Shown here piece by piece: positions 36,218 to 57,128 of a stretch of DNA of 64,000 bases; positions within the stretch are counted from its first letter, which is position 1; each line of letters opens with the position of its first letter. This DNA is from Calditrichia bacterium. GTDB lineage: Bacteria; Calditrichota; Calditrichia; JAJRVZ01. Made by a program: the position numbers and the translations under genes. The stretch covers positions 182,402 to 246,401 of the forward strand of contig CAVXXB010000005.1 of assembly GCA_963765585.1 (NCBI GenBank), read 5' to 3'. Below the pieces are notes generated by a model. It searched no databases. It was not told the DNA's origin and was given only the letters and a program-made list of their open reading frames with translations.

Positions 36218-36379
36218 ATTATGGCTGGTTGCTACATTTACCAGGATAATTATTAACCACAGAGAACACTGAGATTTATGAATTTTAGAGCCACATTGAG
36301 AATGAGTAATTAGTAATTACATATAACTAACTTTTCCATCCCCGGCTCATTAAAATGTAATATATATACAGGAGGAAAT

Positions 36380-38342
36380 ATGTTTAAATTATTGTTACTG
36401 TTAGTAATAGTGATCACACTTTTAAATCCGGTTAGTGCGCAATATTCGCTGAACTGGAAAAATGATCAGGTTGTCACACCGGGCAATGATGTTACACGTA
36501 GTGCAGTATATAACCGGGCGACGGACCATGTTTTAGTCAGCTACCCGCAAATATGGTACTGATGTAATTATTCTCAACGCAGCTAGTGGTGATTCGGTTG
36601 GCAGGATGGATACAGCTAATTTAAGTGGTGGTACATATCCAATTAATATGATTGCCATAGCCGATGATGGTACCATATATGTCAGTAATTTGTCTGCACC
36701 ACAATTTACCACGGGTTCAACATTTAAGGTGTATCGATATGCAGATGAACAGGCAGCTCCGGAACTGGTTTTTGATGATGCCCTGGGTGATAATCGTTAT
36801 GGTGATGCACTGGCAGCAATTGGCAGCGGTAATAATAAATACATTTATTCATCAGGACAGGGCAACGAAAAAATGGTCGCGCTGCGCGATGATGGATCGT
36901 CCAGCCTGATTAAGGTCGCCGAAGTAACGTTGCCACAGGCGGGTAATGCCCGGCATGGTATTGGTCCGGTCACTCCGGGCGGAAATGTCTGGGTGAACGG
37001 AGCAGATACCGGCGCACCACCGCCCAGCCTGTTGACCAAGGATGGTGTTTTGATAAGTGTAATTCCGGATTCCCTGGCTTCAGCGGGAGGCACATCTTTT
37101 ATCGGAAATTTAAAACTTGGTACTTATAATATTCTAACACTTGTGAATGGTTTTTCAGGTACCATTCGGTCCGTGGAGTATTCTGAAGATGAAATCGGCA
37201 ATATAGCATATGGATATTTTGGTGAAAACTCAGATTCGACGCTGCTGTTTCATCCCACAGGACAGATAGGAAATGCAAATGCCAGCGGAACAATTAGTTA
37301 TGATTCCAAGCGTAATGCCTTAGTCACCGTGATTGGACAAAATAGCGTTAGTTCGGTTAGCTTTGAGGGTATGTTAAAAACCAGCACACCACGCGATAGT
37401 AATCTGGTAATTAATATCGATGGTGTAAATGATTTTTTCCCTACTGATCATGTTGGTACCAGTAATGGTCGCGACATGTTTCTGACCTGGTCAGCAGGTA
37501 AATTCTTCGTAGGTATTACCGGCCAGACCCTGGTTGATCCGTCGGAAACTAATTTTATGTATGTTGCATTTGATCTGGATCCTGCGGGGGGGCAAGGCTC
37601 ATCCACACCACCGGAAGTATCCGGCGGGGTAATTGCACTACCTTTTCTGGCTGATGTGGTCTTTGCTATCGAACCCTGGAAAGAACCGGAATTTATGTTA
37701 GGCACCATTTATAAGTGGAGCGGATCGGCATGGACTTCAACTCTGTTTGATGGGAACCTGGCCAGCGAAGGTGCCCTGGCTTTTGCAGATACAGGGAACG
37801 GCAAACTGGCTGAATTTTCGGCCATAATGAACGAACCCGGTATTGGTACCGATTATACCGATCTGGCGGTGATGGCCTATGTGGCTGAAAAAGAAGCCTC
37901 CGGTGCCGTGCTCTCTGCATTTCCAACAGATAATCCGACTCAGACCGGCGCTGCATTTACTCATTATTTTTATATGGAAAGTCTGGCCGACGGCTTGTTT
38001 CCGACCAATACGGATCATGTACAAATTAAATCTGATCCCTCGGCGATTGACCGGAATTTTACCGGAGTGATCGAGTCATTTGAATTAGAACAAAATTATC
38101 CCAATCCGTTTAATCCTGTTACAACCATCACATACCGGGTTCCGGTTGCATCTCAAATTGATTTGCAAGTTTATGATATTACGGGGCGGCTGGTTAAGAC
38201 ACTGGTAAACAGGCCACAAAAAGCAGCAGGTAAGCATAATGTTTCTTTCGATGCTTCAACGCTTAGCTCCGGGATCTATTTTTATCAGTTGCAGGCTGAT
38301 GGCAAGCAAATACAAACACGAAAAATGATTTTGATTAAATAA
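36380..38342 (+). CDS. Secreted beta-propeller-like protein with T9SS CTD; frame break near 36540
   Basis: ORFs 36380-36562 (signal peptide) and 36606-38342 join in-frame-shifted as ...NRATDHVLVS/ATRKYGTDVIILNAASGD.... The CTD reads FELEQNYPNPFNPVTTITYRVP.... An AGGAGG RBS lies at 36371. Confidence 0.5.
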
Positions 38343-38542
38343 CGGTATCTATTTAGATATTTCAAATTGTATTAGTCTGTGAGGATTTGAATAAATAAAT
38401 TAAAAATGTCCAAATCCAAATGACACAATTTCAATACACTTTATATTACTTAGCAGTATTACGATTGAAAATTGGGATTTGGGAGTTGATTTGTAATTTG
38501 TGCCTGGACATTAATCATTAAGCAGTTTCTGGTAGATAAAAT

Positions 38543-40396
38543 ATGAATAAATTGTTGTCTTTAATCATACTGATTTTCACAATTGCAACACTTACTTCAG
38601 CCCAGCAAAAGGAACTGCGCGGCACCTGGGTGGCCTGGGCCGGAAGCAATTATCCGCAAAAAGAACAGATCGCCGATTGGATGGACCAGCTGGCGGCGGG
38701 TAATATCAATGTGGTTTACGTTGATGTATGGCGATTTGGCTATCCATATTTTCGCAGTGAAGTATTCCACGATCTGACCGGCAAATGGACCGATCCGGGA
38801 TTAGTCGAAGGCCGTGATATCCTGCAGGAAATGATTGCCGAAGGGCACCGGGTGGGTATTGAAGTGGATGCATGGTTCGAAGCCGGGTTTGCAGCTTCTC
38901 AACTGGAAAACCGCGATTTATACTTTAGTAAACCACAGTGGTTTGCTAAAAAACAAAATGGCTCAGTCGATTTCTTTTCAAATGGGGGTCTGCGCTATAA
39001 CTGGCTAAGTCACTGTAATGAAGAAGCACAACAATTCCTGATTGATCTGGCACAGGAAGTGGCGGAAAAGTATGATGTGGATGGGATAGAGTTTGACCGC
39101 ATACGTTATCCCGAATTGGATTGCGGTTATGATTCTGCAACAGTTGAATTATATAAATCCGAGCATGATGGCCAGAGTCCGCCAACCAGTGTTGCAAATG
39201 CCGGTTGGATTCGCTGGCGCGCTGATAAATTGAATGACTTTGTCAACAGGCTTGCAGACTCGATTAAATCTGTCAATCCCGGTCTGACAGTGAGTAATGC
39301 CCCATTGTGGTACGGTTATGAACAATTTTGTCAGGACTGGCCACCCTGGATAAATAATAATTATTTAGATTTGGCAAGTACACAAATGTATTTTGCCAGC
39401 AATTCCCAATTTGAGTACCGCCTGGATATCGAATTACAAAAAGTAACAAATGATGGTGATTTATATCCAGGAATATCAACGGTGGCCAATGGTGAGGTGA
39501 CACCAGAAGCAGAGTTGATAGCCATGATAGAGACGACGCGGTCACGCGGATTACAGGGCAATGTGATCTGGTATCATTTAAACCTGTTAAATTATCTTGA
39601 TGGATTAAAAAATTCGGTATATGCAGAATCGGTGGAATTACCATATCGTGAAGCCGGATGGCGTAAACCGGCGATTATCATCAATGAATCAGATAGTGTT
39701 GTAAAAAAATCTACCGGTTGGGTCGATTATAATGGTATCCCTGGTTATGATAATGGTTGTCTTTATGCCAGCAACGTGGATAGCCAATGGATTGAGTATT
39801 ACGCTTCAATCCCGGATGAGGGGTGGTATGAAGTTTATGCGTATATCATACAATTTTTTAATGCTACCGGATCGGCGACCTATTACATTGCCGACTTGAA
39901 AGGCACACAACGAGTGCAGATTGATCAGACCAAACCAGCGAATGCGCGCTGGACAAAACTGGGCGATGTGTACCTGAACAAGGGGGATTCCCAGCGAATT
40001 GTATGGTTAAACAATGAAAATGTTGGCGATAAGTTTGTTTTTGCTGATGCAATTATGATTTTGAATACCAATCGTGTTCTTGGTCCGACCAGTCATGTAA
40101 ATAATCCGGATAATTATCTTGAGAATATTCCCGATGAATATATTTTAGGTCAAAATTATCCCAATCCGTTCAACAATAGAACAGTTATACCATTTACTTT
40201 AAATGATTCACAGTGGGTGGAAATCCAACTATACAATGTCAACGGTGAACAAGTCCAGACCCTTTATAGCGGCCAGACCAGACCGGGAGAAAATAAAATC
40301 CGGGTTGATCTAAGCCATATGGCCAGCGGGATTTATCTATATGGCATTCACAGTCGGAATTATAACCAATACCGCAAATTGATCTTATTAAAATAA
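38543..40396 (+). CDS. GHL10-family (PF02638) protein with T9SS C-terminal sorting domain
   Basis: The GHL10 core reads ELRGTWVAWAGS...EGHRVGIEVDAWFEAGF...YDVDGIEFDRIRYP. The CTD reads YILGQNYPNPFNNRTVIPF.... Confidence 0.8.
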   Translation: MNKLLSLIILIFTIATLTSAQQKELRGTWVAWAGSNYPQKEQIADWMDQLAAGNINVVYVDVWRFGYPYFRSEVFHDLTGKWTDPGLVEGRDILQEMIAEGHRVGIEVDAWFEAGFAASQLENRDLYFSKPQWFAKKQNGSVDFFSNGGLRYNWLSHCNEEAQQFLIDLAQEVAEKYDVDGIEFDRIRYPELDCGYDSATVELYKSEHDGQSPPTSVANAGWIRWRADKLNDFVNRLADSIKSVNPGLTVSNAPLWYGYEQFCQDWPPWINNNYLDLASTQMYFASNSQFEYRLDIELQKVTNDGDLYPGISTVANGEVTPEAELIAMIETTRSRGLQGNVIWYHLNLLNYLDGLKNSVYAESVELPYREAGWRKPAIIINESDSVVKKSTGWVDYNGIPGYDNGCLYASNVDSQWIEYYASIPDEGWYEVYAYIIQFFNATGSATYYIADLKGTQRVQIDQTKPANARWTKLGDVYLNKGDSQRIVWLNNENVGDKFVFADAIMILNTNRVLGPTSHVNNPDNYLENIPDEYILGQNYPNPFNNRTVIPFTLNDSQWVEIQLYNVNGEQVQTLYSGQTRPGENKIRVDLSHMASGIYLYGIHSRNYNQYRKLILLK

Positions 40397-40412
40397 GACA
40401 ATCAATTATAAG

Positions 40413-40500
40413 TAAATCAGTGTAAAACCGCACCTATCCGCGTAATCCGTGTGCAATGGGCGAGTAATGAATGGCCCAGCGGGTCTCGCTGAATTAAAGA
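40413..40500 (+). repeat. Dispersed intergenic repeat element, copy C (9-mer array plus core); the core supplies the start codon of the next gene
   Basis: It reads taaatcagtgtaaaaccgcacctatccgcgtaatccgtgtgcaatgggcgagtaATGAATGGCCCagcgggtctcgctga. Compare copy B at 43684. Confidence 0.65.
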
Positions 40501-41822
40501 CAATATTATCAAAACATAGTGCCGTTGAAAAAAAGGATAAAGATATTAATAAATTCCTTTTAAGATTTCTGTTATTATTCATTTCATTTTTGAATATTAC
40601 CTGTCAAAACAATACAGATTTAATAAGTGAATCGGATCTTTTTTCTGAGCGCACCAGGTTAAGCAAACGATCCGAATTCAAAAGCCGGCTGATACATCAC
40701 ACGATTGAGTTCGCGCTGTCAAAGAACCTATCCGATAGCACCGAGTCGGATTGGCAGGGGGCATTTTGGGCCATGGGACTTGCCCGTTATCGTTCGCAAA
40801 AAACCGATGTGGCTATGAATCAGGCGCTGGCTGACTTTGATAATCGATCGGATAGTTTTAAAAGGTCGTTGCTGGAAATATTATATACTTTATATGAAGA
40901 TGAATACATCACAGATATCATCAATATTTCTATGCGTACAACAAGTAATAAATTATTTGCTATGTGTGCCATTTATTTAAAGGGATATGACAATGATTTG
41001 ATTGCAAGGATGGTCGCAAAATTTCCAGATTGGCAAAGCGATCCTATCCTTTATTCCTTATACCAGGATTTATCTGGCAATGTATATGAGCGGCCGCCCT
41101 TAGCAGATTTATTGCGACACGATTTTTCGACCAAATCGCCGGTGGTCTTTAGCATTCAGCGACCGGATCGCCGATATCCAGGACTTTTGTTAATCAGGTT
41201 GGCAAATGGTCAGTTTCTCAAGACTGAGAATGATAGTATGTTTTACATCCGGCAATTGGCACTGTCCAGTTCAAATCTTCCTGGCTATCTGGCCAATGGT
41301 AATACACCACAGGGTGTTTTTTCGATGCAGGGAGAATTAATTTCTCAAAATGTTTTTATTGGACCAACACCGACACTGCAGACGGTAATGCCATTCGAAG
41401 TATCTGTGTCCGAATTTTTTCACTCAACCGATACTAAAGGCCAGGAATGGGAAATCAGCAGATATAGCGATTTGCTCCCGGATTCCTGGAAGGAGTATAC
41501 ACCCATCTACGAGGCGTATTATGCCGGTCAGGCCGGGAGAACAGAAATAATTGCGCATGGCAGCACTATCGATCCCGAATTTTATAGGAACGAACCGTTT
41601 TATCCCCTAACACCATCTTTAGGCTGCATGACAGCATATGAAAGATGGAACGATCAAACTGGTGTATGTGAACAAAGTAGACAACTGCAATTGGTTAATC
41701 GACTAAAGAAATCTGGGGATTTGAACGGGTTCTTAATCGTGGTTGAGATAAATGATATAAAAAAGCCGGTCAGCATGGCGGATCTTAGTATCATCGCCGC
41801 AAACAAAAAAATGCAAAAATAA
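40467..41822 (+). CDS. Hypothetical (lipo)protein
   Basis: The ATG at 40467 (MNGPAGLAELK...) lies inside the repeat core. A hydrophobic stretch FLLRFLLLFISFLNITC follows. There is no recognisable domain and the start is uncertain. Confidence 0.4.
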   Translation: MNGPAGLAELKTILSKHSAVEKKDKDINKFLLRFLLLFISFLNITCQNNTDLISESDLFSERTRLSKRSEFKSRLIHHTIEFALSKNLSDSTESDWQGAFWAMGLARYRSQKTDVAMNQALADFDNRSDSFKRSLLEILYTLYEDEYITDIINISMRTTSNKLFAMCAIYLKGYDNDLIARMVAKFPDWQSDPILYSLYQDLSGNVYERPPLADLLRHDFSTKSPVVFSIQRPDRRYPGLLLIRLANGQFLKTENDSMFYIRQLALSSSNLPGYLANGNTPQGVFSMQGELISQNVFIGPTPTLQTVMPFEVSVSEFFHSTDTKGQEWEISRYSDLLPDSWKEYTPIYEAYYAGQAGRTEIIAHGSTIDPEFYRNEPFYPLTPSLGCMTAYERWNDQTGVCEQSRQLQLVNRLKKSGDLNGFLIVVEINDIKKPVSMADLSIIAANKKMQK

Positions 41823-41991
41823 ATGAGATCATGTTCCCAGTATACCACCTCGGACACGGTGACGTTTAAACAATTAAATGTCATTGCGAGAAGCGAAGCG
41901 ACGAAGCAATCTATGGCAAAAGTTCTGAATGGCATATACTTATAACCGATTGAAGAATGTTATAAACATTTATAATAAAGGTGAAATTGAG

Positions 41992-43647
41992 ATGCAAAAG
42001 AAGATATGTAGTATATTGTTTGTTCTGATTTTTATTTTTTCCGGATATGCTGAAGATATTATCTGGACTGAAGACACGACGGTTTCATTGCCTGATAGTA
42101 TTAAACTTTATAAAGGAACCCGCACATCGCCCAAGTTGCAGGCTTTTTATCTGGATGTAAATTTGAAAAATGCAGAAATCGCTGTACGTCCATATTTTGG
42201 AGTTCAGACTGCCACCCTGCCAGTATTCACCTCGGCAGCCGGCGCATATGTTGCAATAAATGCCGGTTTTTTTGGTGGTAGTACATCGTATTCCACAATT
42301 ATTAGTCCCGGCGAATTAAAAGCCGCAAACGTGCAATCCTTAGCACGCAATAACCTCACATTTCCTGTCATCCGAAGCATGTTTAGTATAGATACTGACG
42401 GCACAATGGCAGTAGACTGGATGTACCATTTTGATAATACTTTGGAAGGTGTATATTCATTTTCGCAACCATTGTCATATATCAACAACGACCCGGTGCC
42501 GAAAAGTACACCAAAAAAGGAAGACGGAACACCTTTGACAGATTTGCTGGTGGCTGTCGGTGGGGCACCAGTGCTGATAAAAAATGGCGTTATCAATATT
42601 ACTTACGATGAAGAAATTATGTGGGGATCGGGTGTCGGTTTGGACAATAGGGATCCAAGAACCGCTGTTGGTTATACACTGGATAATCACGTGATATTAT
42701 TTGTCGCGGATGGCCGGCAGACGATTAGTGAGGGCGTCAGCTTGCCGGAACTGGCACAAATATTATCGGACCTGGGGTGTAACGAAGCAATCAACCTGGA
42801 TGGCGGTGGTTCCACGCAGATGGCTTTGCCCGGACAATATATAAATTCGCCATCGGAACAGCGGCCGGTGCCAACCATTTTTGCAGTAGTACATAAAGAT
42901 TCTCTGGGCGTACCGGATGAGCCCCAGATTGAAAAGATTATTGATAGCGGAGATTCTGAATGCGAGTTAATTGGGCCAGGATGGTTTCCTACAGCGAATT
43001 CGGGTTTTTGGGGCGAAACACCTTCCATGCTGCATTCGAAGGGAGATGGATCGAGTTATGCACAATATCAGGTGAATGTGGCCGCCGATGCTATTTATGA
43101 TGTTTATGCCTGGTGGGTCGCTTCAACAAACAGATGCACGGATACACCTTTTATTATTCACCATAAGCATGGCATCGATACAGTTTATAAAGATCAGGCT
43201 ACGAATGGCTCCAGCTGGGTACCAATTGGTACGTATACATTTCGTGGAGATTCGAGTGAAAAAATTATTGTTTCTGATAAGGCGACCAATGGCACATATG
43301 TGGTCGTGGATGCGATCCGTCTGGTCACTTATGATACTACCGTTACAGCATTAACGAATTCAGAGGTACGGCATGTACCTGAAAATTTTGTTTTGCATCA
43401 AAATTATCCCAATCCGTTTAATCCTGTCACCACGATTCAATATCAGCTGGCGAAACCAGGCCATGTGGATATAAGTATCTATAATTTACTTGGCGAAAAA
43501 ATGACTACTTTAGTTAATACAATTCAGGCTGAGGGATATTATTCTACTGAATGGCATGCGGACGGGTTTGGAAGTGGTGTATATTTTTATCGCATGTTGA
43601 CCGCGGACGGTCAAATGCAAACAAGAAAACTAATCCTGCTAAAATAA
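41992..43647 (+). CDS. Phosphodiester glycosidase family protein (PF09992/DUF2233, NAGPA 'uncovering enzyme'-like) with T9SS CTD
   Basis: The motifs are YVAINAGFFGG and AVGYTLDNHVILFVADGRQ...NLDGGGSTQMAL. The CTD reads VLHQNYPNPFNPVTTIQYQL.... The ATG is at 41992. Confidence 0.75.
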   Translation: MQKKICSILFVLIFIFSGYAEDIIWTEDTTVSLPDSIKLYKGTRTSPKLQAFYLDVNLKNAEIAVRPYFGVQTATLPVFTSAAGAYVAINAGFFGGSTSYSTIISPGELKAANVQSLARNNLTFPVIRSMFSIDTDGTMAVDWMYHFDNTLEGVYSFSQPLSYINNDPVPKSTPKKEDGTPLTDLLVAVGGAPVLIKNGVINITYDEEIMWGSGVGLDNRDPRTAVGYTLDNHVILFVADGRQTISEGVSLPELAQILSDLGCNEAINLDGGGSTQMALPGQYINSPSEQRPVPTIFAVVHKDSLGVPDEPQIEKIIDSGDSECELIGPGWFPTANSGFWGETPSMLHSKGDGSSYAQYQVNVAADAIYDVYAWWVASTNRCTDTPFIIHHKHGIDTVYKDQATNGSSWVPIGTYTFRGDSSEKIIVSDKATNGTYVVVDAIRLVTYDTTVTALTNSEVRHVPENFVLHQNYPNPFNPVTTIQYQLAKPGHVDISIYNLLGEKMTTLVNTIQAEGYYSTEWHADGFGSGVYFYRMLTADGQMQTRKLILLK

Positions 43648-46244: not shown

Positions 46245-46278
46245 GTAAAAAAAAGCCCGGATCATATGATCCGGGCTA
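46245..46278 (-). terminator. Rho-independent terminator of the DUF4397 repeat-protein gene
   Basis: The perfect palindrome gcccggatcatatgatccgggc is flanked by an A8/T8 run, immediately 3' of the stop codon at 46288-46290. Confidence 0.7.
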
Positions 46279-46287: not shown

Positions 46288-49200
46288 CTATTTAATGAGT
46301 GTCATTCGTTTGATCTGCGAGTAGCTTCCTGCTTGCAATACATACATATAGATTCCTGATGCCAGATCATTGGCATTAAAATCAACTTCATATTGACCGG
46401 CATTCTGCATACCGTCAACCAGATTAGCCACAAGACGTCCGGTTAAATCATATATCTTAAGTGATACATTTGCTGCTTCCGGAATCGAAAACTGAATCTT
46501 TGTGCTTGGATTAAATGGATTCGGGTAGTTCTGCTGCAACTGATATTCAGTTACTATCTGATTTTCGCCAAATTCGGCGATACTTGTTACCTGTTCAAAA
46601 CCATTGGAAATCATAATATCGTTCATGATATCTGTTTTATCATCAGAAAATAATTCAGGTAACTCAACCACATCACCATTCGCAAGTGCTGCAAAAAGCC
46701 CAAATCCTGCACCATTATTATTGGCGTCAGGATTAACAAATCCTGAGGCGAATACAAACGCAGCGCCGCCACCCAGACCGCTCAAATCAGCTTTATAAAT
46801 ACCAACCAGGCTGAACGAGGGTTTTGGTACATACACAACTATCCAATTCTTACGTGCTTTAAGCGATTTATATTCAGTAATATCGCCGTACTTTGCATTT
46901 TTTATGGCAAGACCATATGCAAGAATATTGACACCTGGTGCATCTGTTGCACCATGCATTACTTTTAGATCAACCTGATCATCTTCCATGGCGGCTTCAC
47001 GTGCGCCATCAGTGGCAAACAGGGTAAAGGCAATATCTTTGCCATCGGGATTTGGTGCAAAACCATCACCCAGCACACCATTGGCCACGACAACATAGGA
47101 ACCACCGTCGGCTAAGGTGACCGGAAACGTTGCGATGATATCACCGGCATCATTACTGCTGCCCGGTGCGACACCAATCTTAAGTTCTGTTTCTGCAGGC
47201 ACGTCAACAAATGGCGTTGCTTTGCGGAACATAAAATCATCAAGGAATTTTTCACCATTGACATACACATCAACTACTTTGGCAGCCGGATCGGCAGCAT
47301 TGTGAATTACCTGCAGACGGGCCATCGGTTTGGGCATTTCGATCATCGGCAGTTCAACCACATCACCTGTAGGAAGAGCGGCAAACAAACCAAAGGCAGC
47401 ACCACCATTATTATTATCAGGAGATAAGAAACCGGAAGCAAACACAGTGGCTGCGCCACCGCCTAAACCAGACAGATCGGCTTTAAAAGAAGCAACAATC
47501 GTTTCATTATCATTTCCTGGTGTTACATCAAGAATGTAATCACCGGCCGGTACGGATAAATAACCGGTAAACATGCCATACATGGCATCCTCAACCAACT
47601 TCGCTACATCACGTGCAATTACATCCACAGTCGGTGCGTCAGTTGAACCATGAAATACATTTAAATCAACTTTATCTGCTTCCATGGCGGCTTCACGTGC
47701 GCCATCAGTAGCAAACAGGGTAAAGGCAATATCTTTGCCATCGGGATTTGGTGCAAAACCATCACCCAGCACACCATTGGCCACGACAACATAGGAACCA
47801 CCGTCGGCTAAGGTGACCGGAAACGTTGCGATGATATCACCGGCATCATTACTGCTGCCCGGTGCGACACCAATCTTAAGTTCTGTTTCTGCAGGCACGT
47901 CAACAAATGGCGTTGCTTTGCGGAACATAAAATCATCAAGGAATTTTTCACCATTGACATATACATCAACTACTTTGGCAGCCGGATCGGCAGCATTGTG
48001 AATTACCTGCAGACGGGCCATCGGTTTGGGCATTTCGATCATCGGCAGTTCAACCACATCACCTGTAGGAAGAGCGGCAAACAAACCAAAGGCAGCACCA
48101 CCATTATTATCATCAGGAGATAAGAAACCGGAAGCAAACACAGTGGCTGCGCCACCGCCTAAACCAGACAGATCGGCTTTAAAAGAAGCAACGATGGTTT
48201 CATTATCATTTCCTGGTGTTACATCAAGAATGTAATCACCGGCCGGTACGGATAAATAACCGGTAAACATGCCATACATGGCATCCTCAACCAACTTCGC
48301 TACATCACGTGCAATTACATCCACAGTCGGTGCGTCAGTTGAACCATGAAATACATTTAAATCAACTTTATCTGCTTCCATGGCGGCTTCACGTGCGCCA
48401 TCAGTAGCAAACAGGGTAAAGGCAATATCTTTGCCATCGGGATTTGGTGCAAAACCATCACCCAGCACACCATTGGCCACGACAACATAGGAACCACCGT
48501 CGGCTAAGGTGACCGGAAACGTTGCGATGATATCACCGGCATCATTACTGCTGCCCGGTGCGACACCAATCTTAAGTTCTGTTTCTGCAGGCACGTCAAC
48601 AAATGGCGTTGCTTTGCGGAACATAAAATCATCAAGGAATTTTTCACCATTGACATAGACATCAACTACTTTGGCAGCCGGATCGGCAGCATTGTGAATT
48701 ACCTGCAGACGGGCCATCGGTTTGGGCATCTCGATCATCGGCAGTTCAACCACATCACCTGTAGGAAGAGCGGCAAACAAACCAAAGGCAGCACCACCAT
48801 TATTATTATCAGGAGATAAGAAACCGGAAGCAAACACAGTGGCTGCGCCACCGCCTAAACCAGACAGATCGGCTTTAAAAGAAGCAACATTGGTTAAATT
48901 ATCATTAGCGGGTGTTACATCAAGAATTACTTTCGTTGGAAGAATTCTTCTATAACCTTTATAATCACCATATGACAAATCATTTGCCAGTAACCATTTC
49001 CAGTTTCCCCAACCGGTATCGACCTTCGGCAAGTCCATATTGTTTGCAGCAAGTGAGGCATCGTTATTCTTATAGGATTTATCAAAACTTAAGAGAATAT
49101 CAACAGCAGGGGCATCAGTTGCACCATGGAGAATTAAAGCGTCTACTAAGAAAGGAAATAATCCTTTTTCTTTCACTTTATCGCGGGCAAACAGGGTAAA

Positions 49201-49563
49201 AGAAATATCTTTGCCATCGGGGTTCGGTGCAAAACCATCACCCAGCACACCATTGGCCACAACTACATAGGAACCACCATCGGCTAAGGTGACCGGAAAC
49301 GTTGCGATGATATCACCGGCATCATTACTACTTCCCGGTGCGACACCAATCTTAAGTTCTGTTTCTGCCGGCACGTCAACAAATGGCGTTGCTTTGCGGA
49401 ACATAAAATCATCAAGGAATTTTTCACCATTGACATACACATCAACCACTTTGGCAGCCGGATCAGCCGCATTGTGAATTACCTGCAATCGTGCGGATTT
49501 ATCTTGAGCCAATAAAACGCCGGATGCAAGAACCAGTAAAAATAATGAGTAAAGAAAACGCAT
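46288..49563 (-). CDS. Large secreted tandem-repeat protein: 4 x ~232-aa units each holding two DUF4397-like (PF14344-like) modules, plus T9SS CTD
   Basis: The signal peptide is MRFLYSLFLLVLASGVLLAQ. The unit RLQVIHNAADPAAKVVDVYVNGEKF...MIEMPKP occurs 4 times. The CTD reads LQQNYPNPFNPSTKIQFSIP.... Confidence 0.8.
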   Translation of the reverse strand: MRFLYSLFLLVLASGVLLAQDKSARLQVIHNAADPAAKVVDVYVNGEKFLDDFMFRKATPFVDVPAETELKIGVAPGSSNDAGDIIATFPVTLADGGSYVVVANGVLGDGFAPNPDGKDISFTLFARDKVKEKGLFPFLVDALILHGATDAPAVDILLSFDKSYKNNDASLAANNMDLPKVDTGWGNWKWLLANDLSYGDYKGYRRILPTKVILDVTPANDNLTNVASFKADLSGLGGGAATVFASGFLSPDNNNGGAAFGLFAALPTGDVVELPMIEMPKPMARLQVIHNAADPAAKVVDVYVNGEKFLDDFMFRKATPFVDVPAETELKIGVAPGSSNDAGDIIATFPVTLADGGSYVVVANGVLGDGFAPNPDGKDIAFTLFATDGAREAAMEADKVDLNVFHGSTDAPTVDVIARDVAKLVEDAMYGMFTGYLSVPAGDYILDVTPGNDNETIVASFKADLSGLGGGAATVFASGFLSPDDNNGGAAFGLFAALPTGDVVELPMIEMPKPMARLQVIHNAADPAAKVVDVYVNGEKFLDDFMFRKATPFVDVPAETELKIGVAPGSSNDAGDIIATFPVTLADGGSYVVVANGVLGDGFAPNPDGKDIAFTLFATDGAREAAMEADKVDLNVFHGSTDAPTVDVIARDVAKLVEDAMYGMFTGYLSVPAGDYILDVTPGNDNETIVASFKADLSGLGGGAATVFASGFLSPDNNNGGAAFGLFAALPTGDVVELPMIEMPKPMARLQVIHNAADPAAKVVDVYVNGEKFLDDFMFRKATPFVDVPAETELKIGVAPGSSNDAGDIIATFPVTLADGGSYVVVANGVLGDGFAPNPDGKDIAFTLFATDGAREAAMEDDQVDLKVMHGATDAPGVNILAYGLAIKNAKYGDITEYKSLKARKNWIVVYVPKPSFSLVGIYKADLSGLGGGAAFVFASGFVNPDANNNGAGFGLFAALANGDVVELPELFSDDKTDIMNDIMISNGFEQVTSIAEFGENQIVTEYQLQQNYPNPFNPSTKIQFSIPEAANVSLKIYDLTGRLVANLVDGMQNAGQYEVDFNANDLASGIYMYVLQAGSYSQIKRMTLIK
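46990..49480. repeat. Tandem 696-bp DNA repeats inside the DUF4397 gene (three near-identical copies plus diverged flanking copies)
   Basis: Identical antisense ORFs at 47117, 47813 and 49289, and at 47330, 48026 and 48722, are offset by exactly 696 nt. The string at 47101, accaccgtcggctaaggtgaccgg, recurs at 47797. Confidence 0.85.
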
Positions 49564-49859
49564 AATAACCTCCGAGATTAAATAAATAAATTAGTTAGAT
49601 GAAAATTGTAATTATTTGATTCAATCATAGGAACAAGCATAAATATAAAAATATTCCAATAAACTAAAAAAATTACGCTCAAAACGCTTATATCATATTA
49701 AGCGTTAAAATTGTGGTTGTTAACTGTATTATAAACATATAATTAGAATGCCTATCATTAAGAGTAAATAGTTTAAAAAATATAAGGAGTGATTATATGG
49801 GTATTATTTAATTGTACAAGGAATCTAATAATGAAAATACAAAATGATTATATTATTTT

Positions 49860-50362: not shown

Positions 50363-50593
50363 CTACCATTTCTTGTCATGACAACTGTGACAGGAAGGTG
50401 CTTTGTCAGTTCCCTGCAAATTTTCTCCATGGCAACTGGTGCAATTTTCATCAGGTTTATTTAGACCGGGCTTATGCATGATGCCATCTTCATTAATTGT
50501 ATGATCAGCAGGTGCGTTATTTTCTGATTCCATAGTCGTTTCACAGGCAACTATCAGCAGCAGTATAACAATTAAGGCAAATATAAATTTCAT
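50363..50593 (-). CDS. Small diheme c-type cytochrome-like lipoprotein
   Basis: The start was moved to ATG 50593 (MKFIFALIVILLLIVAC). It has two CxxCH motifs, CTSCH and CHSCH, in 76 aa. Confidence 0.45.
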   Translation of the reverse strand: MKFIFALIVILLLIVACETTMESENNAPADHTINEDGIMHKPGLNKPDENCTSCHGENLQGTDKAPSCHSCHDKKW

Positions 50594-50888
50594 ATTATGA
50601 TTCTCCGTAATTCCTTGTTTATTTAGGTTTATGAATTTCATGTTGCAGCTCCCGGCTGCAATCAAAAAATAAAAGATTATACAAATCACATGAATTATTT
50701 AACCGCAATGACGCGAAGGAAATGCAAAGCGCACAAAGTTTTTTATTAATTTGAAGAATTATGAATTTTATCTTTGCGAATCTTGTGTTTTCTTTGCGGC
50801 TTAGCGGTAAATTTTTAAAGTCTTGGCTATAAACTTTTAACTAGCCGATAGCCTATTGCCAACTGCCAATAGCCACAAACTTACATCT

Positions 50889-51800
50889 TCAGCACATTAA
50901 TAGTATCGTATCCGTTACCGCCGATCCAAACACGCCAATCCCATCTCCCTCGATATCAAATAGCGGTTCATGGAGATTACCGTCCGGTTCCTGTACATTG
51001 GCCTGGGTATTATAAAAATGATAAAAATTTTTGTCTCCGGCATAAAGTATCAACCGATAATTGCCATAAAACCAGAATTGAAACCATGTTAATTCAATAA
51101 CAGAATTTCCGTCAATTTCATTTTCGGGCCGCGTCCACCTGGCTGAATATTGAAAGTCCTCAACCTTGGCGCCCTCATCCAATGCTTCCTGTATTTCAAA
51201 GCCAAATGGATTTTCATAGATAAATGATTCCACACTGGCTTCCAGAGAAGCGATTGAAAGCAGGAAAAAAGCAGAGTTTGGCGACTGGCTGTAATTAACA
51301 CGTGGGGAGATCAGTTGTCCGTTGTCATCCGTCTGGCGATAAAAAAGATCACCATAGATTGAATTTACCAGGTCTATTTCCAATCCCGCATCCGGTACTG
51401 TGGTTACTGATGATGCCTGTAACTGATTGCCGTCGATAACTGCACTAATGTTTATACGGTAACTGACGCCATTTGCAATGATCAGATCAGTCCCGGGATA
51501 TTCAAAACTTCCTTTGCCAGGATTATAAGATAATGGATAGATGTCGCCGTTATCCAGCTCAGTAATAGTTACTTCCGCTGTCCTGAGCGCAATTTCATCT
51601 TTTTTAATTTCCTGACCGATAGCAAAATTTCTGGTTATACGGATGTCATTCACCGGCCGATTTGGATATATATAGCCCTCTATTACTATTTTAGGTTCGT
51701 AGGTGCGTTCATCAACCGATACCGATGTTTTTCCACAGGCAAACAAGTAAAAACCCAGGGCTGCAATTAGCAGGTATTTGCAATCAAAGTATTTATTCAT
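50889..51800 (-). CDS. Hypothetical lipoprotein encoded downstream of a TonB-dependent receptor (DUF4249-like by context)
   Basis: The lipoprotein signal reads MNKYFDCKYLLIAALGFYLFACGK. The DUF4249 call is from gene context only. Confidence 0.4.
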   Translation of the reverse strand: MNKYFDCKYLLIAALGFYLFACGKTSVSVDERTYEPKIVIEGYIYPNRPVNDIRITRNFAIGQEIKKDEIALRTAEVTITELDNGDIYPLSYNPGKGSFEYPGTDLIIANGVSYRINISAVIDGNQLQASSVTTVPDAGLEIDLVNSIYGDLFYRQTDDNGQLISPRVNYSQSPNSAFFLLSIASLEASVESFIYENPFGFEIQEALDEGAKVEDFQYSARWTRPENEIDGNSVIELTWFQFWFYGNYRLILYAGDKNFYHFYNTQANVQEPDGNLHEPLFDIEGDGIGVFGSAVTDTILLMC

Positions 51801-51809: not shown

Positions 51810-54146
51810 CTAAAAATCTGCTTTTACGCCAATGGTCGGTAAAATGGGAAACATATTCGTTGTTTCCACGGTCTGAATGACTCTGTCATCCAGTTCTTCA
51901 TTTTCGTATTCAATAAACCACACATTTTCACGATTACCGATATTAAAAATTTGGATATATGGTGACAATACCCAGGAATCATAGTGATGTTCATATGTCA
52001 GACTCAGATCGAGACGTATATAATCAGGCAATCGAAAATTATTGATTGCTGTAGGGAATAGGTAAAGCTGGTTGTAGTCTCTGTCTGGTATCCTTGATGA
52101 ATAATATGTCGAGCTGGTGAGAGTGATGGGCTGCCCGGACGAATAAACAAAGTTGGCGCCGAACCTCCAACGTGTTTTATCATTTTTATAGGGTTTATTC
52201 TTTAACGATCGCCACACATTTTTGATATCCATATTGAAAACAAAATTGACCACATGGGTTCGGTCATGTCGCGGTTCGTACGAATTTCCCTGATTTATGC
52301 CCTCAACCACATACTGGGTTTGCGCCAGGGAGTAAGCCAACCAGCCATTGATTGCGCCATATCTTTTTCTCAGTAAAATTTCTAAGCCGAGTGAATTACC
52401 GTCCCCGCGATTGAAAAGACCTTCAGTCTCGGTAAAGATGGGTCTGCCCCTTGAATCATACCCTGTGGGTGTAAAATCAATAAAATAATTTGTAAGCGAA
52501 TAAAGATTATCATATTCTTTGTAATAGGTTTCGATTTCCAGACTGACATTATCACCTACCTCTCTTTGAAATCCCAAAATATAATGAACAGCCTGTGACC
52601 GGTCATAATTTTCATCAGATGTGAGCCAGATGTCCGCCACAAATGGACGCGGTACTTTGTGCAGGTATTGATAATAGATTCCAATTGATCCATTTATATT
52701 TATGGTCTCGGTCAGACGGTGTTTTATTGCCAGTCGGGGTGCCAGGTCATGAAAATTCTTTTCAGCGGAAAAGAAATTATATCTGAGCCCTGGTTCTATA
52801 TACCAGTCAGGGGTTGGCGTGTAAGGAACTGAAACATAACCGGTAAGGGAAGTCCTTTTTCGTTCAATATCTATTATGCCATTTGGGGAGTTTTGCTGAT
52901 ATGAATTGTCGATATTCTTTTGTTCAAACCCGAATTTTGCACTTATTTCCTGAGAAAACAGATATTCAAACTGTCCTTTAAATCCAATATCGGAAATTTC
53001 ATTTTCCTCCCGAACATTGACCTGAGTAAAACTGAACTCAGATGAGAAATTGCTTGCAGTGAACCAGATATTTGAGAAAAAGTTTGGATTAAATACATGG
53101 GTCCAGCGAATACTGCCGGTGGTGTTACCCCAGTTATAGTCAAGTTCCGGTGCATCCGGCTCTTCTGAGTCGAAATTATAATTTAGAAAATCTGTTCCGC
53201 TGAAAAAACTGAATGTTAATTTGTTATCGGCGTCTATATCGAAAAATGCTTTGAGATGACCATCATAAAAGTAATAATCCGGTATATCATCAACAAACAG
53301 CTTTCCAGTTTCGCCAATATAGGTTCGACGAAATGATCCGGAAATGGACCCGATATCTCCCAATGGCATTTGCAGTGTTGTTTTTGCCGATAGCAGGCTG
53401 ATTTCTGCCGTTCCTTGAAAGAATTTTCGATTACCATCCAGGTTGGTCACATCCAGAACCGATGACAATCTTCCGCCATAATCTGCGGTAAACCCACCCT
53501 TGGATATGGACACATCTTTTATGGCATCGGTATTAAACGTTGAGAAAAGGCCAAAGGCGTGCTCCGGGTTATATACATCGGCACCATCAATTAAAAAGAG
53601 ATTTTGATCTGACGTACCACCACGTACATATATCTCAGAGGAATAATCTGAAATGGGCAAGATCCCAGGAAGACTTTGCAATGTTCTGAGCAGATCCGTT
53701 TCGGCAACGGCAGGTACATTTTTAATTTCGAGAGGATTAATTTCTATGGTGGACACTTTTTGCCGGAATAATTTGAGCGAAGTGCGAACCGAGTCGGCTG
53801 TGACTGATACAACATCGGTTTCTAAATATGCCGGCTGCAATACAATATTTAGTTTCAATGGTTGATCTTGATTTAAACTGATTTTTTTCTGAAAATCTAA
53901 AAAGCCAATATAACTGCAAATGACGGTATAGCTGCCGGATGGCAAGCCAGATATGACATAATACCCGGAATGATTACTTACTGCGCCATAACTATCATCT
54001 TCGAGGTATATATTTGCACCAATCAGAGACTCACCACTGGATTCATCAATAACAAATCCACTGATACTGGAAGTCTGGCTAAACACATTCGTGAATCTGA
54101 GTAGTAGAATGATCGATAAAAACAATATTTTTCGGTTCAAAAACAC
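51810..54146 (-). CDS. TonB-dependent outer-membrane receptor (CarboxypepD_reg-like N-domain)
   Basis: The N-domain reads SGFVIDESSGESLIGANIYLEDDSYGAVSNHSGYYVISGLPSGSYTVICSYIGF. It has plug and barrel domains and the C-terminus ...IGVKADF. Confidence 0.85.
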   Translation of the reverse strand: MFLNRKILFLSIILLLRFTNVFSQTSSISGFVIDESSGESLIGANIYLEDDSYGAVSNHSGYYVISGLPSGSYTVICSYIGFLDFQKKISLNQDQPLKLNIVLQPAYLETDVVSVTADSVRTSLKLFRQKVSTIEINPLEIKNVPAVAETDLLRTLQSLPGILPISDYSSEIYVRGGTSDQNLFLIDGADVYNPEHAFGLFSTFNTDAIKDVSISKGGFTADYGGRLSSVLDVTNLDGNRKFFQGTAEISLLSAKTTLQMPLGDIGSISGSFRRTYIGETGKLFVDDIPDYYFYDGHLKAFFDIDADNKLTFSFFSGTDFLNYNFDSEEPDAPELDYNWGNTTGSIRWTHVFNPNFFSNIWFTASNFSSEFSFTQVNVREENEISDIGFKGQFEYLFSQEISAKFGFEQKNIDNSYQQNSPNGIIDIERKRTSLTGYVSVPYTPTPDWYIEPGLRYNFFSAEKNFHDLAPRLAIKHRLTETININGSIGIYYQYLHKVPRPFVADIWLTSDENYDRSQAVHYILGFQREVGDNVSLEIETYYKEYDNLYSLTNYFIDFTPTGYDSRGRPIFTETEGLFNRGDGNSLGLEILLRKRYGAINGWLAYSLAQTQYVVEGINQGNSYEPRHDRTHVVNFVFNMDIKNVWRSLKNKPYKNDKTRWRFGANFVYSSGQPITLTSSTYYSSRIPDRDYNQLYLFPTAINNFRLPDYIRLDLSLTYEHHYDSWVLSPYIQIFNIGNRENVWFIEYENEELDDRVIQTVETTNMFPILPTIGVKADF

Positions 54147-54566: not shown

Positions 54567-55988
54567 ATGGTGAAAAATAATATATTACATCAGTCTAATT
54601 GGCTGTTAATTCTCATCGTATGTGTATTCATGCAAAAAAGTGGGTATGCACAATCTCCCGATCCGTCTGAGACTGTTTATCTGACAATGGAAGAAGCCAT
54701 CTCCATGGCATTGACGCAAAATAATCAGGTTAAGGCCAGTGAATACGGTGTGCTTCAGGCGAAATGGAATTACCGGGCGGCCTGGACCCGGATGTTACCG
54801 TCAGTAAATTTGACATCGCGTTATACCTGGATTGATGACAGCACATTTGCCCTGCGTGATTTTAGCAGATATTTTCAGGATCCTACTTCTCCATTTGGCT
54901 TCAATATTCCACAGACAGTCTTTCAGGAATCTTTTTATACCTCCATTGATGTAAATCTGCAGCTTTTTAATGCAAATTTATTTTATAACCTTTTTGTCTC
55001 AGAAGCCCAGGAAGAGGCAGCCGAATTCCAGGATGAAAGTACCCGCAGAAATATAATATTTCTGGCACTCAGTACTTATCTCAGTGTTTTGAAAAATGAG
55101 GAAATATTAAAATTACAAAGGGAATATCTGGATCTTTCTTTGCTCAATTATGAAAAAGCAGAGCGTATGCAGTCTGCCGGCCGGTACTCAAAATCAGAAG
55201 CGCTGCGCTGGAAAGTAGATTACCAACGGCAAAAGGGAATTGTGGTAGATAGCGAAAATCAGGTGCGCAGTGCCCATGCCCGGCTTTGTCGTGTAGTAAA
55301 TCTGGATATGAGAACGGCTTTAAAAATTGATCCGCAGATTCCTGAGCGTATTCTGGATGAAGGCAAACGTGTGGCCGCATTGTCTGATGAAGAAGTGATT
55401 AAAATGATTGATATTGATCAGGAAACACTTATTGCGGCAAATGCCGCATTATCGGCTGCCAGGAAGAATGAAGACATAAGCCGTTTGATGTATCAAAGCT
55501 CGCGGGCCAATTTTATGCCAAATCTGTCTCTGAATTATTCCTACGGATGGCGTGAAAATGAAACGGCAAATCTGGATGACTATTCACCGCAGTTATTAAT
55601 GGTTAATTTTAGTATCCCGTTATTTACCAGTTTTAATAACGTCTCAAAACTAAAATCCAGCTATTATGGGTATCAGCAGAGTCAGGAAAATTTCCAGGAT
55701 CAATTACAAAATGTGAGATTTATTTTGACCGAGACGGTTAATAAAATAATCAACCAGAAAACGCAATTGGAAATTTCAAAAGTAAATATTGAATACAATG
55801 ATCGGAATTACCGGATTGTTGAACAGCAAAAAGAACAGGGCCTGGTTTCCAATATTGATTTTATCGATGCCAAACTAAATCTACAGGATGCCAAACTTCA
55901 GGATATCAATACAAATTATGATTTTATCTCAGGAATCATTGAATTGTACTATTTGCTTGGTAAAATTAATGAAACGGTGCTCGAATAG
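54567..55988 (+). CDS. Outer-membrane efflux protein (TolC/OEP family)
   Basis: It has a signal peptide and two OEP repeats (LTMEEAISMALTQNNQVKASEYGVLQAKWNYRAAW...). Confidence 0.85.
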   Translation: MVKNNILHQSNWLLILIVCVFMQKSGYAQSPDPSETVYLTMEEAISMALTQNNQVKASEYGVLQAKWNYRAAWTRMLPSVNLTSRYTWIDDSTFALRDFSRYFQDPTSPFGFNIPQTVFQESFYTSIDVNLQLFNANLFYNLFVSEAQEEAAEFQDESTRRNIIFLALSTYLSVLKNEEILKLQREYLDLSLLNYEKAERMQSAGRYSKSEALRWKVDYQRQKGIVVDSENQVRSAHARLCRVVNLDMRTALKIDPQIPERILDEGKRVAALSDEEVIKMIDIDQETLIAANAALSAARKNEDISRLMYQSSRANFMPNLSLNYSYGWRENETANLDDYSPQLLMVNFSIPLFTSFNNVSKLKSSYYGYQQSQENFQDQLQNVRFILTETVNKIINQKTQLEISKVNIEYNDRNYRIVEQQKEQGLVSNIDFIDAKLNLQDAKLQDINTNYDFISGIIELYYLLGKINETVLE

Positions 55989-56006: not shown

Positions 56007-57128
56007 ATGAGGTTTTATAAAATGAAAAATATTATTCAACGCTTTCTATTTCCCGTATTGATGGTTGCCATATATTATTCGTGTGCACCTTCGGAATCAG
56101 AGTCCGACTCGACCGATTCGGCCCCAGCGATTAAAAATTCAATTTCGGTTGAAGCCAGGGTCGTGCGTGCAAAATTCGTGGAGCAAAATCTGTCTCTCAC
56201 TGGTGTATTAAAACCACTTAGAGCCGTCGATCTGGTCGCCGAAGTTTCAGGTAAAATTACACGGGTAAATAAACGGGTTGGCGATACGGTCTCAAAAACC
56301 GATATCATTGCCCGGATAGATGACAAGGTTCCCCTGAGCAATTATCAACATGCCCAGGCACAGGTATTGTCTGCTGAGGCAAATTTGCAAATTGCCAAAT
56401 TGAATTTAAAAAGTGATGAAGACTTATTTAATAACGGCGATATCTCAGAATTAGAACATCAGAATTCAATGTTGACGGTTAAAACGGCGGAAGCAAATCA
56501 TCAATCGGCTCTAGCCAGTCTCAGTCAATTTGAAAAGGCCTGGCAGGATACGCGAATTATTTCCCCAATTGCCGGTGTCATATCACGTAAACATATAAAT
56601 GCCGGAACGATGGTAATGATCAACATGCCCTTATTTCGCGTAGTAGATCTGAGTACCCTTAAACTGGAAGTGGGTGTTCCCCAGGAAATAATCAGCCGGG
56701 TAAGGAAAGGTAACCAGGCGCAGATCGAAATTTCAGGTCTTGCCGGTCGGAAATTTCCAGGTACAGTTGAAAGAATTTCACCGGAAGCCGATGAGAAGAC
56801 CGGCGCATTTAATGTTGAGATCCTGGTAAAAAATACCAGGGATAATCTCATCAAAGCCGGAATGACAGCAAAGTTGGACGTCACGATACGCACAGACAAT
56901 AACCAGATTGTAGTTCCCGATCATGCGATCGTTTTCAGGAAAAATGAAAAATTTGTGTATAAAATAAAAAATAAAATCGCGTTTCTGGAGCAAATCGATA
57001 CGGGTGAAACCATAGGTGGCCAGGTAGTGATTGCCGGAGGAGTGAGTGAAGGTGATACCATCGTCGTCGTCGGAATGAAAAATCTGGGCGTCGAAACCCC
57101 TGTGTGGATCGAGGAGTTGTATGAGTAG
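56007..57128 (+). CDS. RND efflux periplasmic adaptor (membrane-fusion protein, HlyD-like)
   Basis: It has a biotin-lipoyl-like hairpin and beta-barrel regions (SLTGVLKPLRAVDLVAEVSGKITRVNKRVGDTVSKTDIIARID). An alternative start lies at 56022. Confidence 0.85.
   Translation: MRFYKMKNIIQRFLFPVLMVAIYYSCAPSESESDSTDSAPAIKNSISVEARVVRAKFVEQNLSLTGVLKPLRAVDLVAEVSGKITRVNKRVGDTVSKTDIIARIDDKVPLSNYQHAQAQVLSAEANLQIAKLNLKSDEDLFNNGDISELEHQNSMLTVKTAEANHQSALASLSQFEKAWQDTRIISPIAGVISRKHINAGTMVMINMPLFRVVDLSTLKLEVGVPQEIISRVRKGNQAQIEISGLAGRKFPGTVERISPEADEKTGAFNVEILVKNTRDNLIKAGMTAKLDVTIRTDNNQIVVPDHAIVFRKNEKFVYKIKNKIAFLEQIDTGETIGGQVVIAGGVSEGDTIVVVGMKNLGVETPVWIEELYE

Follow-up and report, generated by a model that had tools for sequence, protein, structure and literature searches.

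What kind of protein is encoded by a gene built largely of 696-nt repeats that are almost the same letter for letter, and how did it come by its present number of repeats? We addressed this question in a 64,000-nt stretch of DNA (the window) in which a single open reading frame on the minus strand forms a complete coding sequence (46288..49563) for a protein of 1091 aa, the length given in the preliminary description. The protein opens with a putative Sec signal peptide, MRFLYSLFLLVLASGVLLA (49507..49563, minus strand), which on sequence has the usual n-h-c layout and a predicted cleavage site before QDK; the mature product (~112 kDa, pI 4.3) is rich in Ala, Gly, Asp and Val and contains eight His and no Cys. 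The start motif ARLQVIHNAADPAAKV, found at aa 24, 284, 516 and 748, marks off four units on this strand. Unit 1, the putative distal or 'tip' unit (aa 24-283, 260 aa, 780 nt; 48715..49494), consists of two DUF4397 beta-sandwiches, the second interrupted by a Trp-rich insertion of 32 aa (SFDKSYKNNDASLAANNMDLPKVDTGWGNWKW, aa 159-190; 48994..49089) that is modelled as a helix with an extra beta-hairpin and that has counterparts of variable sequence at the same position in relatives. Unit 2 (aa 284-515; 48019..48714) is a canonical double-DUF4397 unit of 232 aa, and unit 3 (aa 516-747, 232 aa; 47323..48018) is near-identical to it. Unit 4, the presumed proximal unit (aa 748-972, 225 aa; 46648..47322), has a first domain that matches its counterparts in units 2 and 3, followed by a divergent second domain whose position is conserved in orthologues. 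The proposal of four double-DUF4397 units of ~232 aa thus stands as to their number and double nature, although not as to their size, since the first and last depart from it. A 40-aa acidic linker (SDDKTDIMNDIMISNGFEQ..., 46528..46647, minus strand), kept in the closest relatives, leads from the last unit to a type A C-terminal sorting domain of the type IX secretion system (T9SS; PF18962/TIGR04183; 46291..46527, minus strand).

Both domain names had first been suggested from the letters of the sequence, and profile searches bear them out. PF14344 (DUF4397) matches the whole protein in six stretches (213.7 bits, E=1e-63); scored singly, the first and second domains of a central unit reach 37.4 and 45.2 bits, each above the gathering score of 30.6 bits, and the term double-DUF4397 unit is therefore correct. 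In units 1 and 4, the second domain stays below the gathering score, at 20-21 bits. At the extreme C-terminus (aa 1013-1087 of 1091), TIGR04183 matches with 43.3 bits (cutoff 23) and Por_Secre_tail, PF18962, with 42.2 bits (cutoff 27, E=1e-10). N-terminal to the array, Pfam gave no domain other than DUF4397, and no separate distal ligand-binding domain was found.

Modelling of one 232-aa unit (unit 2) by AlphaFold2 gave a pLDDT of 96 and a pTM of 0.90, with two separate beta-sandwiches predicted per unit. The nearest folds to this model are the extracellular domain (ECD) of PepT1/2 and AlgF, that is, protein-binding or adaptor modules, and on this predicted structure we confidently assign the DUF4397 unit to the PepT-ECD/AlgF fold class. 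The mammalian PepT1/PepT2 ECD (SLC15A1/2; PDB 5a9d, 5a9h), which binds trypsin (PMC4597091), likewise consists of two eight-stranded beta-sandwich lobes in tandem, but it shares only 11-13% sequence identity with the unit, with no match at the sequence level, and it is a single-copy insert in a eukaryotic MFS transporter rather than an array. AlgF, the Pseudomonas alginate acetylation adaptor (PDB 6d10), is a non-enzymatic mediator of protein-protein interactions (PMC10641220); it differs in being a periplasmic single pair encoded in an exopolysaccharide operon, without a T9SS domain or repeats. DUF4397 has itself been described as 'presented in AlgF' (PMC7349177). Searches of PDB sequences with a single unit and with a 30-sequence profile returned noise only (E at least 0.15), and hmmscan, with E values as high as 10 allowed, reported no match to the AlgF profile PF11182. 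An enzymatic role was considered and rejected, because no catalytic family matches the protein and its fold neighbours are binding modules.

At the level of DNA, the repetition takes the form of one near-identical tract of 1,906 nt (46983..48888, minus strand; gene nt 676-2581), spanning 2.74 periods of exactly 696 nt, or 232 codons, in frame. Its copies of 696, 696 and 514 nt agree at 691/696, 511/514 and 511/514 positions (99.3-99.4%) and differ in six columns, one of which has three alleles, with a single nonsynonymous change among them; exact repeats within the tract reach 461 nt. The tract ends sharply, identity dropping to ~57% less than 100 nt beyond each edge, and these edges do not coincide with those of the domains: the tract starts 58 aa before the end of unit 1, runs through the whole of units 2 and 3, and stops 113 aa into unit 4. 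What the preliminary description had called three essentially identical central units is accordingly near-identical as DNA, but is more precisely a single tract of two full copies and a shorter one. Identity above 99% over 1.2 kb cannot be due to chance. We mapped these repeats by a repeat search and an offset-identity script; Tandem Repeats Finder reported nothing, because its longest period, 500, falls short of 696. Short open reading frames of 41-69 aa do recur at 696-nt offsets as first noticed (for example 47117/47813, 47302/47998/48694 and 47330/48026/48722), in sense as well as antisense. Those in antisense were rejected as candidate genes: they recur because the DNA itself repeats, and are a trivial by-product of it.

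The amplification is recent. By the Nei-Gojobori method, comparison of the first domains of units 2-4 with one another gives a dS of 0.01-0.03, as against 1.0-1.9 between orthologues, in keeping with the very recent expansion or homogenisation originally proposed. The first domain of unit 1 encodes almost the same protein as those of units 2-4 in different DNA (19-21 differences in 312 nt, dS 0.25-0.28), a combination that led us to ask whether unusual selection keeps the units identical. This explanation was rejected, omega being 0.046-0.052 as compared with 0.06-0.07 between orthologues; such an ordinary value indicates that unit 1 begins, judged by its substitutions, with an older copy of the domain, subject to no more than the usual purifying selection.

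Because the 696-nt repeats are in frame and more than 99% identical, whole units can be gained or lost, and RecA-type unequal crossing-over or gene conversion would add or remove 232 aa at a time. The length of the repeats makes homologous unequal crossing-over between them the likely mechanism, for which the tract would be the substrate. The comparison with relatives fits. A syntenic orthologue at the locus that we call L001 (P0088, 631 aa) has two units and lies with genes for a cation-chloride (CCC) cotransporter, an NAGPA-T9SS protein, an unknown product and a GHL10-T9SS protein; a close relative of 857 aa (P0041) has three, with the same homogenised tract in 1.77 copies between the same boundaries, as expected if unequal crossing-over had operated on it. 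With the window protein these form a series of two, three and four units, drawn from organisms at ~75% aa identity rather than from strains. The suggestion that length varies by repeat slippage is thus upheld as regards the variation, whereas unequal crossing-over is a likelier cause than slippage of the microsatellite type. Some 15 relatives, of 843-848 aa, share the layout of first, central and last units; relatives examined carry 2-8 units per protein, with identical units in several, and P0001, P0018, P0036, P0039, P0076, P0085 and P0105 each contain units that are 100% identical or nearly so.

Could the count of four be a product of assembly? Only six variant columns separate the copies, and exact repeats extend to 461 nt in a tract of 1.9 kb, which makes worry over copy number legitimate: repeats at more than 99% identity might have been collapsed, expanded or mis-joined, leaving a four-unit architecture that is partly artefact and a true unit count that differs. 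The exact protein and two of its neighbours are absent from the public contig collection, so that no independent assembly is at hand; many metagenomic members of the family are fragments on contigs of 1-2.5 kb, as if broken at repeats; and an AcrB-family gene elsewhere in the window (57503-60602) is split into two open reading frames, which may indicate sequence errors. Against this, the six differing columns, one with three alleles, suggest that the copies were resolved separately, and the array is perfectly in frame inside a contiguous 64-kb window. An array of this type (3 x 774-nt units) is also present on a 652-kb contig of a different organism, and the two- and three-unit relatives share the tract boundaries, which makes the four-unit form the product that recombination would be expected to yield. 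We consider an artefact unlikely here. Unit counts of such genes in short-read assemblies are not to be trusted.

The signals that flank the gene suggest that it is expressed on its own. Upstream lies an AT-rich intergenic region of 296 nt (49564..49859, minus strand; ~30% GC), presumably holding the promoter, with a GGAGG Shine-Dalgarno sequence at 49569-49573 upstream of the start; a scan for sigma-70-like sites gave one weak match (49723-49695), and fewer matches than in shuffled sequence. Downstream, 11 nt past the stop codon, a strong predicted intrinsic terminator, AGCCCGGATCATATGATCCGGGCT (46254..46277, minus strand), combines a 10-bp stem with seven GC pairs and a following T7. With its own leader and its own terminator, the gene is, as far as these elements can be read from the DNA, monocistronic. 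Three further proteins in the window carry Por_Secre_tail, from which it follows that the organism very likely uses the T9SS; core T9SS genes (PorU/V, SprA, GldKLMN class) were not found among the window's open reading frames scanned against Pfam.

Taken together, these features point to a periscope-like stalk or adhesin, variable in length, that is exported by the T9SS and anchored at its C-terminus, and this we regard as the probable identity of the protein. Sec would carry it across the inner membrane, and the type A sorting domain would then direct its passage through the T9SS; by analogy, PorU would cleave off that domain, and the new C-terminus would be joined to anionic LPS, or the protein released. 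Release in place of anchoring does occur among type A T9SS cargo. Eight beta-sandwich domains of the AlgF/PepT-ECD type, paired in four units, would follow one another along the mature protein. The C-terminal unit and the linker would adjoin the anchor; the near-identical pair of central units would either provide spacing or act as repeated modules for binding; and the N-terminal unit with its Trp-rich variable insertion would stand furthest from the cell. From the 61 A reported for the PepT2 ECD, we estimate that such a stalk would lengthen by roughly 5-6 nm per unit. A binding partner would, by analogy, be a protein or a glycan. It is the unit with the insertion that has been amplified in P0085, which weakens a strict division into tip and stalk.

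The likeness is to the periscope proteins, exemplified by SasG, Rib/alpha C, Sgo_0707 and CdrA (Whelan et al. 2021, PMC8201768), and to the stalks of fibrillar adhesins: these too are secreted and targeted to the cell envelope, have long tandem repeats that are near-identical in DNA and each a folded module (here 696 nt, predicted with a pLDDT of 96), differ in repeat number among relatives (here at the level of species, at ~75% aa identity, not strains), and have a C-terminal anchor that leaves the N-terminus distal. The window protein differs in relying on a T9SS type A sorting domain where these use LPXTG/sortase or two-partner secretion, in having as its repeat a two-domain DUF4397 pair of 232 aa, and in having only a modified first unit in place of a separate N-terminal ligand-binding domain; its rod geometry is putative. 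In our literature search, no paper treated a T9SS cargo as a periscope protein, the one overlap of terms being an unrelated LPMO metagenome study. The preliminary description's 'surface or S-layer-like adhesin' goes further than these results: neither an adhesive domain nor a ligand was found, the fold neighbours are not S-layer proteins, and the literature mentions DUF4397 in passing only, with no experiment or proteomics that places such proteins on the cell surface.

The neighbourhood of the gene suggests a different role, that of a scaffold or binding partner for nearby T9SS-secreted glycosidases, scaffoldin-like or CBM-like rather than a passive stalk, which would recruit enzymes or their glycan substrate with each unit as a docking site. 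Genes for T9SS cargo lie beside it (GHL10+Golvesin_C, NAGPA+Golvesin_C and another protein bearing a sorting domain), with genes for TonB-dependent receptors nearby; this neighbourhood is conserved at L001, and the closest folds recruit partners, trypsin in the case of the PepT ECD and AlgJ/AlgX in that of AlgF. Yet the gene is on the strand opposite to the glycosidases, with a leader and terminator of its own, and is separated from them by a cation-chloride cotransporter gene; a related gene at another locus (L003) has quite different neighbours, namely TRAP transporter and arsenic-resistance genes; AlgF did not bind its polysaccharide in vitro (PMC10641220); and no partner motif was identified. 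On balance, we think such a role improbable. A bolder version, which we hold to be very improbable, would make the double-DUF4397 unit the bacterial counterpart of a PepT-ECD/AlgF partner-recruiting module and the T9SS-anchored arrays scaffoldins that hold one enzyme per unit. If it were true, a unit number driven by recombination would tune the quantity of enzyme held at the cell surface, in a cellulosome-like system of T9SS-bearing (FCB-group) bacteria with the neighbouring Golvesin_C glycosidases as candidate cargo. Least probable of all is an abundant, self-associating coat protein, S-layer-like or of the biofilm matrix, with homotypic lateral contacts between identical units: an acidic (pI 4.3), Cys-free, Ala/Gly/Asp/Val-rich protein made entirely of beta-sandwich repeats with no separate adhesive domain would suit it, but the top fold neighbours are other than S-layer proteins, and a lattice-forming protein is expected to hold a constant size, as opposed to the 2-8 units seen among the relatives examined.

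A presumably T9SS-exported array of this kind, a separate adhesive tip domain being absent and the whole built of the repeat module, has many counterparts. The gene is real and fairly ordinary, and does not overturn current understanding; it belongs to a very large, unstudied and presumably surface-exposed family that combines DUF4397 arrays with T9SS sorting domains in environmental Bacteroidota and related phyla and comprises at least 2,395 clusters. What the locus offers is a clean natural series of two, three and four units with identical recombination boundaries, which, with the fold assignment, extends the idea of the periscope protein to T9SS cargo and makes the domain amenable to testing. 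The multi-repeat PF14344 proteins that we compared (P0001-P0120), from Bacteroidota and related MAGs, share with the window protein the domain, its pairing into units of ~210-232 aa, the signal peptide and the sorting domain, at 36-76% aa identity; they contain 2-8 units, some of them identical in many members. Within this wider set, the window protein falls in a small subgroup in which the first unit bears an insertion and the last unit is divergent, together with P0088, P0041, P0085 and the proteins of ~845 aa. A scan of genome contigs gave a single, unrelated match to the C-terminal domain; searched with an alignment of the last unit and linker, metagenome contigs yielded one fragment at 53% identity, and protein sequences yielded short fragments only and no distribution of copy number. 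The contig that carries the three-unit relative P0041 is labelled 'Calditrichia', and the groups cited for PF14344 arrays are Lewinellaceae, Saprospiraceae, Chitinophagales and Aureisphaera.

The DUF4397-array gene is a single open reading frame (ORF) of 1091 aa (46288-49563, minus strand) and is a stand-alone unit, since it has its own terminator hairpin (10 bp, GC-rich, then T7; 46254-46277), 11 nt 3' of the stop codon, and its own AT-rich leader (296 nt, ~30% GC) with a GGAGG Shine-Dalgarno sequence, a motif not diagnostic of the organism, before the ATG. Profile matches make the protein, by its sequence, a clear member of both PF14344 and T9SS type A cargo, in line with the preliminary description: Pfam finds DUF4397 (PF14344, E=1e-63) and Por_Secre_tail (aa 1013-1087), and NCBIfam the type A sorting domain TIGR04183 (43.3 bits). 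The two halves of a central unit each exceed the PF14344 threshold alone (37.4 and 45.2 bits), agreeing with the double-domain unit proposed earlier; because in units 1 and 4 (numbered from the N-terminus) the second domain scores only about 20-21 bits, six DUF4397 stretches are reported, not eight. The N-terminus, MRFLYSLFLLVLASGVLLA with a break before QDK, reads as a probable Sec signal peptide. The mature protein (~112 kDa, pI 4.3) has 0 Cys and 8 His, as many His as domains (8), and in the unit alignment the first His is invariant in every half-unit.

Tandem 696-bp repeats within one ORF, as first described, were recovered: offset-identity analysis of the gene gives a period of exactly 696 nt (232 codons), and the motif ARLQVIHNAADPAAKV starts units at aa 24, 284, 516 and 748. 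Tandem Repeats Finder reported no repeat in the gene because its longest period is 500. Four units are present in the assembled gene, but their supposed uniform length of ~232 aa does not hold: an insertion of 32 aa (aa 159-190) extends unit 1 to 260 aa, and unit 4 has 225 aa and a divergent second domain. Similarly, the near-identity attributed to three central units is real at the DNA level but does not keep register with the protein units: it is a single tract of 2.74 periods (46983-48888, minus strand; gene nt 676-2581), made up of 696-, 696- and 514-nt copies, which spans the final 58 aa of unit 1, the whole of units 2 and 3, and the initial 113 aa of unit 4. Its copies match at 691/696, 511/514 and 511/514 positions, with six variable columns, one of three alleles and a single one nonsynonymous (N/D/N at aa 253/485/717); beyond the tract, identity falls to ~57% within 100 nt on both sides, and the longest exact repeat in the gene is 461 nt. 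The ORFs of 41-69 aa that reappear at 696-nt offsets, previously noted in antisense, occur on both strands as a mechanical consequence of the DNA repeat.

At E<=1e-5, a protein search gave no fewer than 2,395 clusters, nearly all with the PF14344 + PF18962 architecture, with sources including MAGs of Lewinellaceae, Saprospiraceae, Chitinophagales and Flavobacteriaceae as well as Aureisphaera. When split, 120 homologues gave 2-8 units each, of 210-232 aa, with a top within-protein unit identity of about 0.2 to 1.0; units at or near 100% identity occur in seven of the 120 (P0001, P0018, P0036, P0039, P0076, P0085 and P0105). The special first and last units of the window protein recur in its closest relatives: P0088 (631 aa, 76% identity), P0041 (857 aa, 75% identity, on a contig labelled 'Calditrichia') and some 15 proteins of 843-848 aa, which have a first/central/last layout with diverged units. 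Unit number differs among relatives with shared breakpoints, and the length variation first postulated is seen as 2, 3 and 4 units in P0088, P0041 and the window protein, relatives at ~75% identity. The locus of P0088 shows synteny with the window: after its DUF4397 gene come a cation-chloride cotransporter, NAGPA+Golvesin_C+CTD, an unknown gene and GHL10+Golvesin_C+CTD. In P0041 the homogenised tract recurs with identical edges ('...VASFKADLSG' to '...GARExAME') at 1.77 copies, and the P0088 gene lacks the tract repeat; unequal crossing-over inside the tract would predict copy numbers of 0.74, 1.74 and 2.74.

Nei-Gojobori estimates for the first domain of each unit fall into tiers. Among units 2, 3 and 4, dS is 0.01-0.03 (omega undefined, with 0 nonsynonymous changes), as expected of the very recent expansion originally suggested; between unit 1 and units 2-4 it is 0.25-0.28 (omega 0.046-0.052), and between the window and orthologues 1.0-1.9 (omega 0.06-0.07, reaching 0.115 against P0041 unit 1). 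These tiers and omega values therefore indicate a layered history, in which unit 1 was homogenised earlier and the duplication is very recent, with ordinary purifying selection throughout. The last-position domain lies at a dS of about 1.0 from its P0088 positional orthologue versus about 1.6 from the P0088 first domain. Unusual selection on unit 1, suspected from identical protein and divergent DNA, was dropped, the Nei-Gojobori numbers being ordinary.

A related array on a 652-kb contig from another organism (L003, 8001-12124), in an unrelated gene neighbourhood, comprises three 774-nt units followed by two more, the amplified unit being the insertion-bearing one of 258 aa. Two +1 frameshifts, where repeats lie 697 and 691 nt apart and not the expected 696 and 690, divide this gene into three called ORFs (911, 286 and 89 aa) and represent either sequencing (long-read indel) errors or a pseudogene. 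Many metagenome homologues are fragments of 120-290 aa on 1-2.5 kb contigs, consistent with short-read assemblies breaking inside the repeats; because they seem to do so, the numbers of DUF4397-array units read from public MAG proteins may be unreliable in many cases. For the window gene itself, we consider it unlikely that an assembly or copy-number artefact has made the specific unit count wrong.

The structure prediction of one 232-aa unit envisaged earlier gave a confident fold: AlphaFold2, supplied with an alignment of 30 unit sequences from diverse homologues, modelled unit 2 as all-beta, with two sandwiches (pLDDT 96, pTM 0.90). Foldseek matched this model to PepT1/PepT2 in the PDB (E about 1e-6), where sequence searches matched no entry. 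Unit 1 (pLDDT 87.9) has the same structural neighbours; the Trp-rich insertion confined to its second domain (…DTGWGNWKW; 48994-49089, minus strand) is modelled, at lower confidence, as a helix and an additional beta-hairpin. All ~845-aa relatives have an insertion of variable acidic and aromatic sequence at the matching position, and that of unit 1 may serve as a ligand-contact or antigenic loop at the predicted distal end. The PepT extracellular domain (ECD) comprises two Ig-like sandwiches and binds trypsin (PMC4597091); AlgF, whose authors name PepT2 as its closest fold, has two sandwiches of this class, is non-enzymatic and forms a bridge between AlgJ and AlgX (PMC10641220). Fold likeness to both places the DUF4397 pair in a class of binding or adaptor modules that are not catalytic; our literature search on DUF4397 found incidental mentions only.

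Taken by analogy, the protein is probably a T9SS-exported, periscope-like extended stalk of variable length. Following established T9SS biology, Sec export would precede T9SS translocation, PorU would cleave off the C-terminal domain, and the new C-terminus would be joined to anionic LPS or the protein released, the latter being the fate of some type A cargo. As in periscope proteins and fibrillar adhesins, the array would form an extended stalk (PMC8201768, PMC9210967), its distal end being the N-terminal unit that bears the variable Trp-rich insertion, and would grow with each added unit by perhaps 5-6 nm if extrapolated from the 61 Å of the PepT2 ECD (PMC4597091). Like periscope proteins, the window protein has high-identity folded repeats; unlike them, it has no separate distal functional domain, and repeat-number variation is seen only between relatives at ~75% identity. 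Since the defining features match only in part, we describe it as periscope-like, with a predicted rod geometry, and not as a confirmed member. Our literature search found no paper in which a type IX secretion cargo is treated as a periscope protein; both terms occur together in just one, an unrelated LPMO metagenome study. A role as scaffold for the adjacent secreted glycosidases seems doubtful to us, and a self-associating coat protein very improbable.

Those neighbours belong to a plus-strand cluster of likely glycan-processing genes (27418-43647), several with T9SS sorting domains, whose order is partly kept at the P0088 locus: GHL10 (27418-28572), a TonB-dependent receptor carrying CarboxypepD_reg (28692-31607), four ORFs without Pfam match (31674-36217), a 578-aa protein whose sole domain is the CTD (36606-38342), GHL10+Golvesin_C+CTD (38543-40396), a 457-aa ORF without Pfam match, and NAGPA+Golvesin_C+CTD (41929-43647). 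On the minus strand, a TonB-dependent receptor with CarboxypepD_reg and Plug domains and no detected barrel match (51810-54146) precedes a DUF4249 protein (50889-51800); next comes a 108-aa ORF with CxxCH and CHxCH motifs and no Pfam match (50363-50689), whose product may be a small lipoprotein of cytochrome-like or metal-binding type. An AcrB/AcrD/AcrF-family RND pump, preceded by OEP (54567-55988) and HlyD-like (56007-57128) genes, occupies two plus-strand ORFs 25 nt apart (57503-59350 and 59376-60602), covering Pfam ACR_tran positions 1-604 and 654-1020; the split may come from a frameshift or stop or from a sequencing error, or be genuine, and it bears on the sequence quality of the window. 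A full-length cobalamin riboswitch aptamer (RF00174; 420-593, minus strand) scores 96.8 bits, where the gathering score is 31.5.
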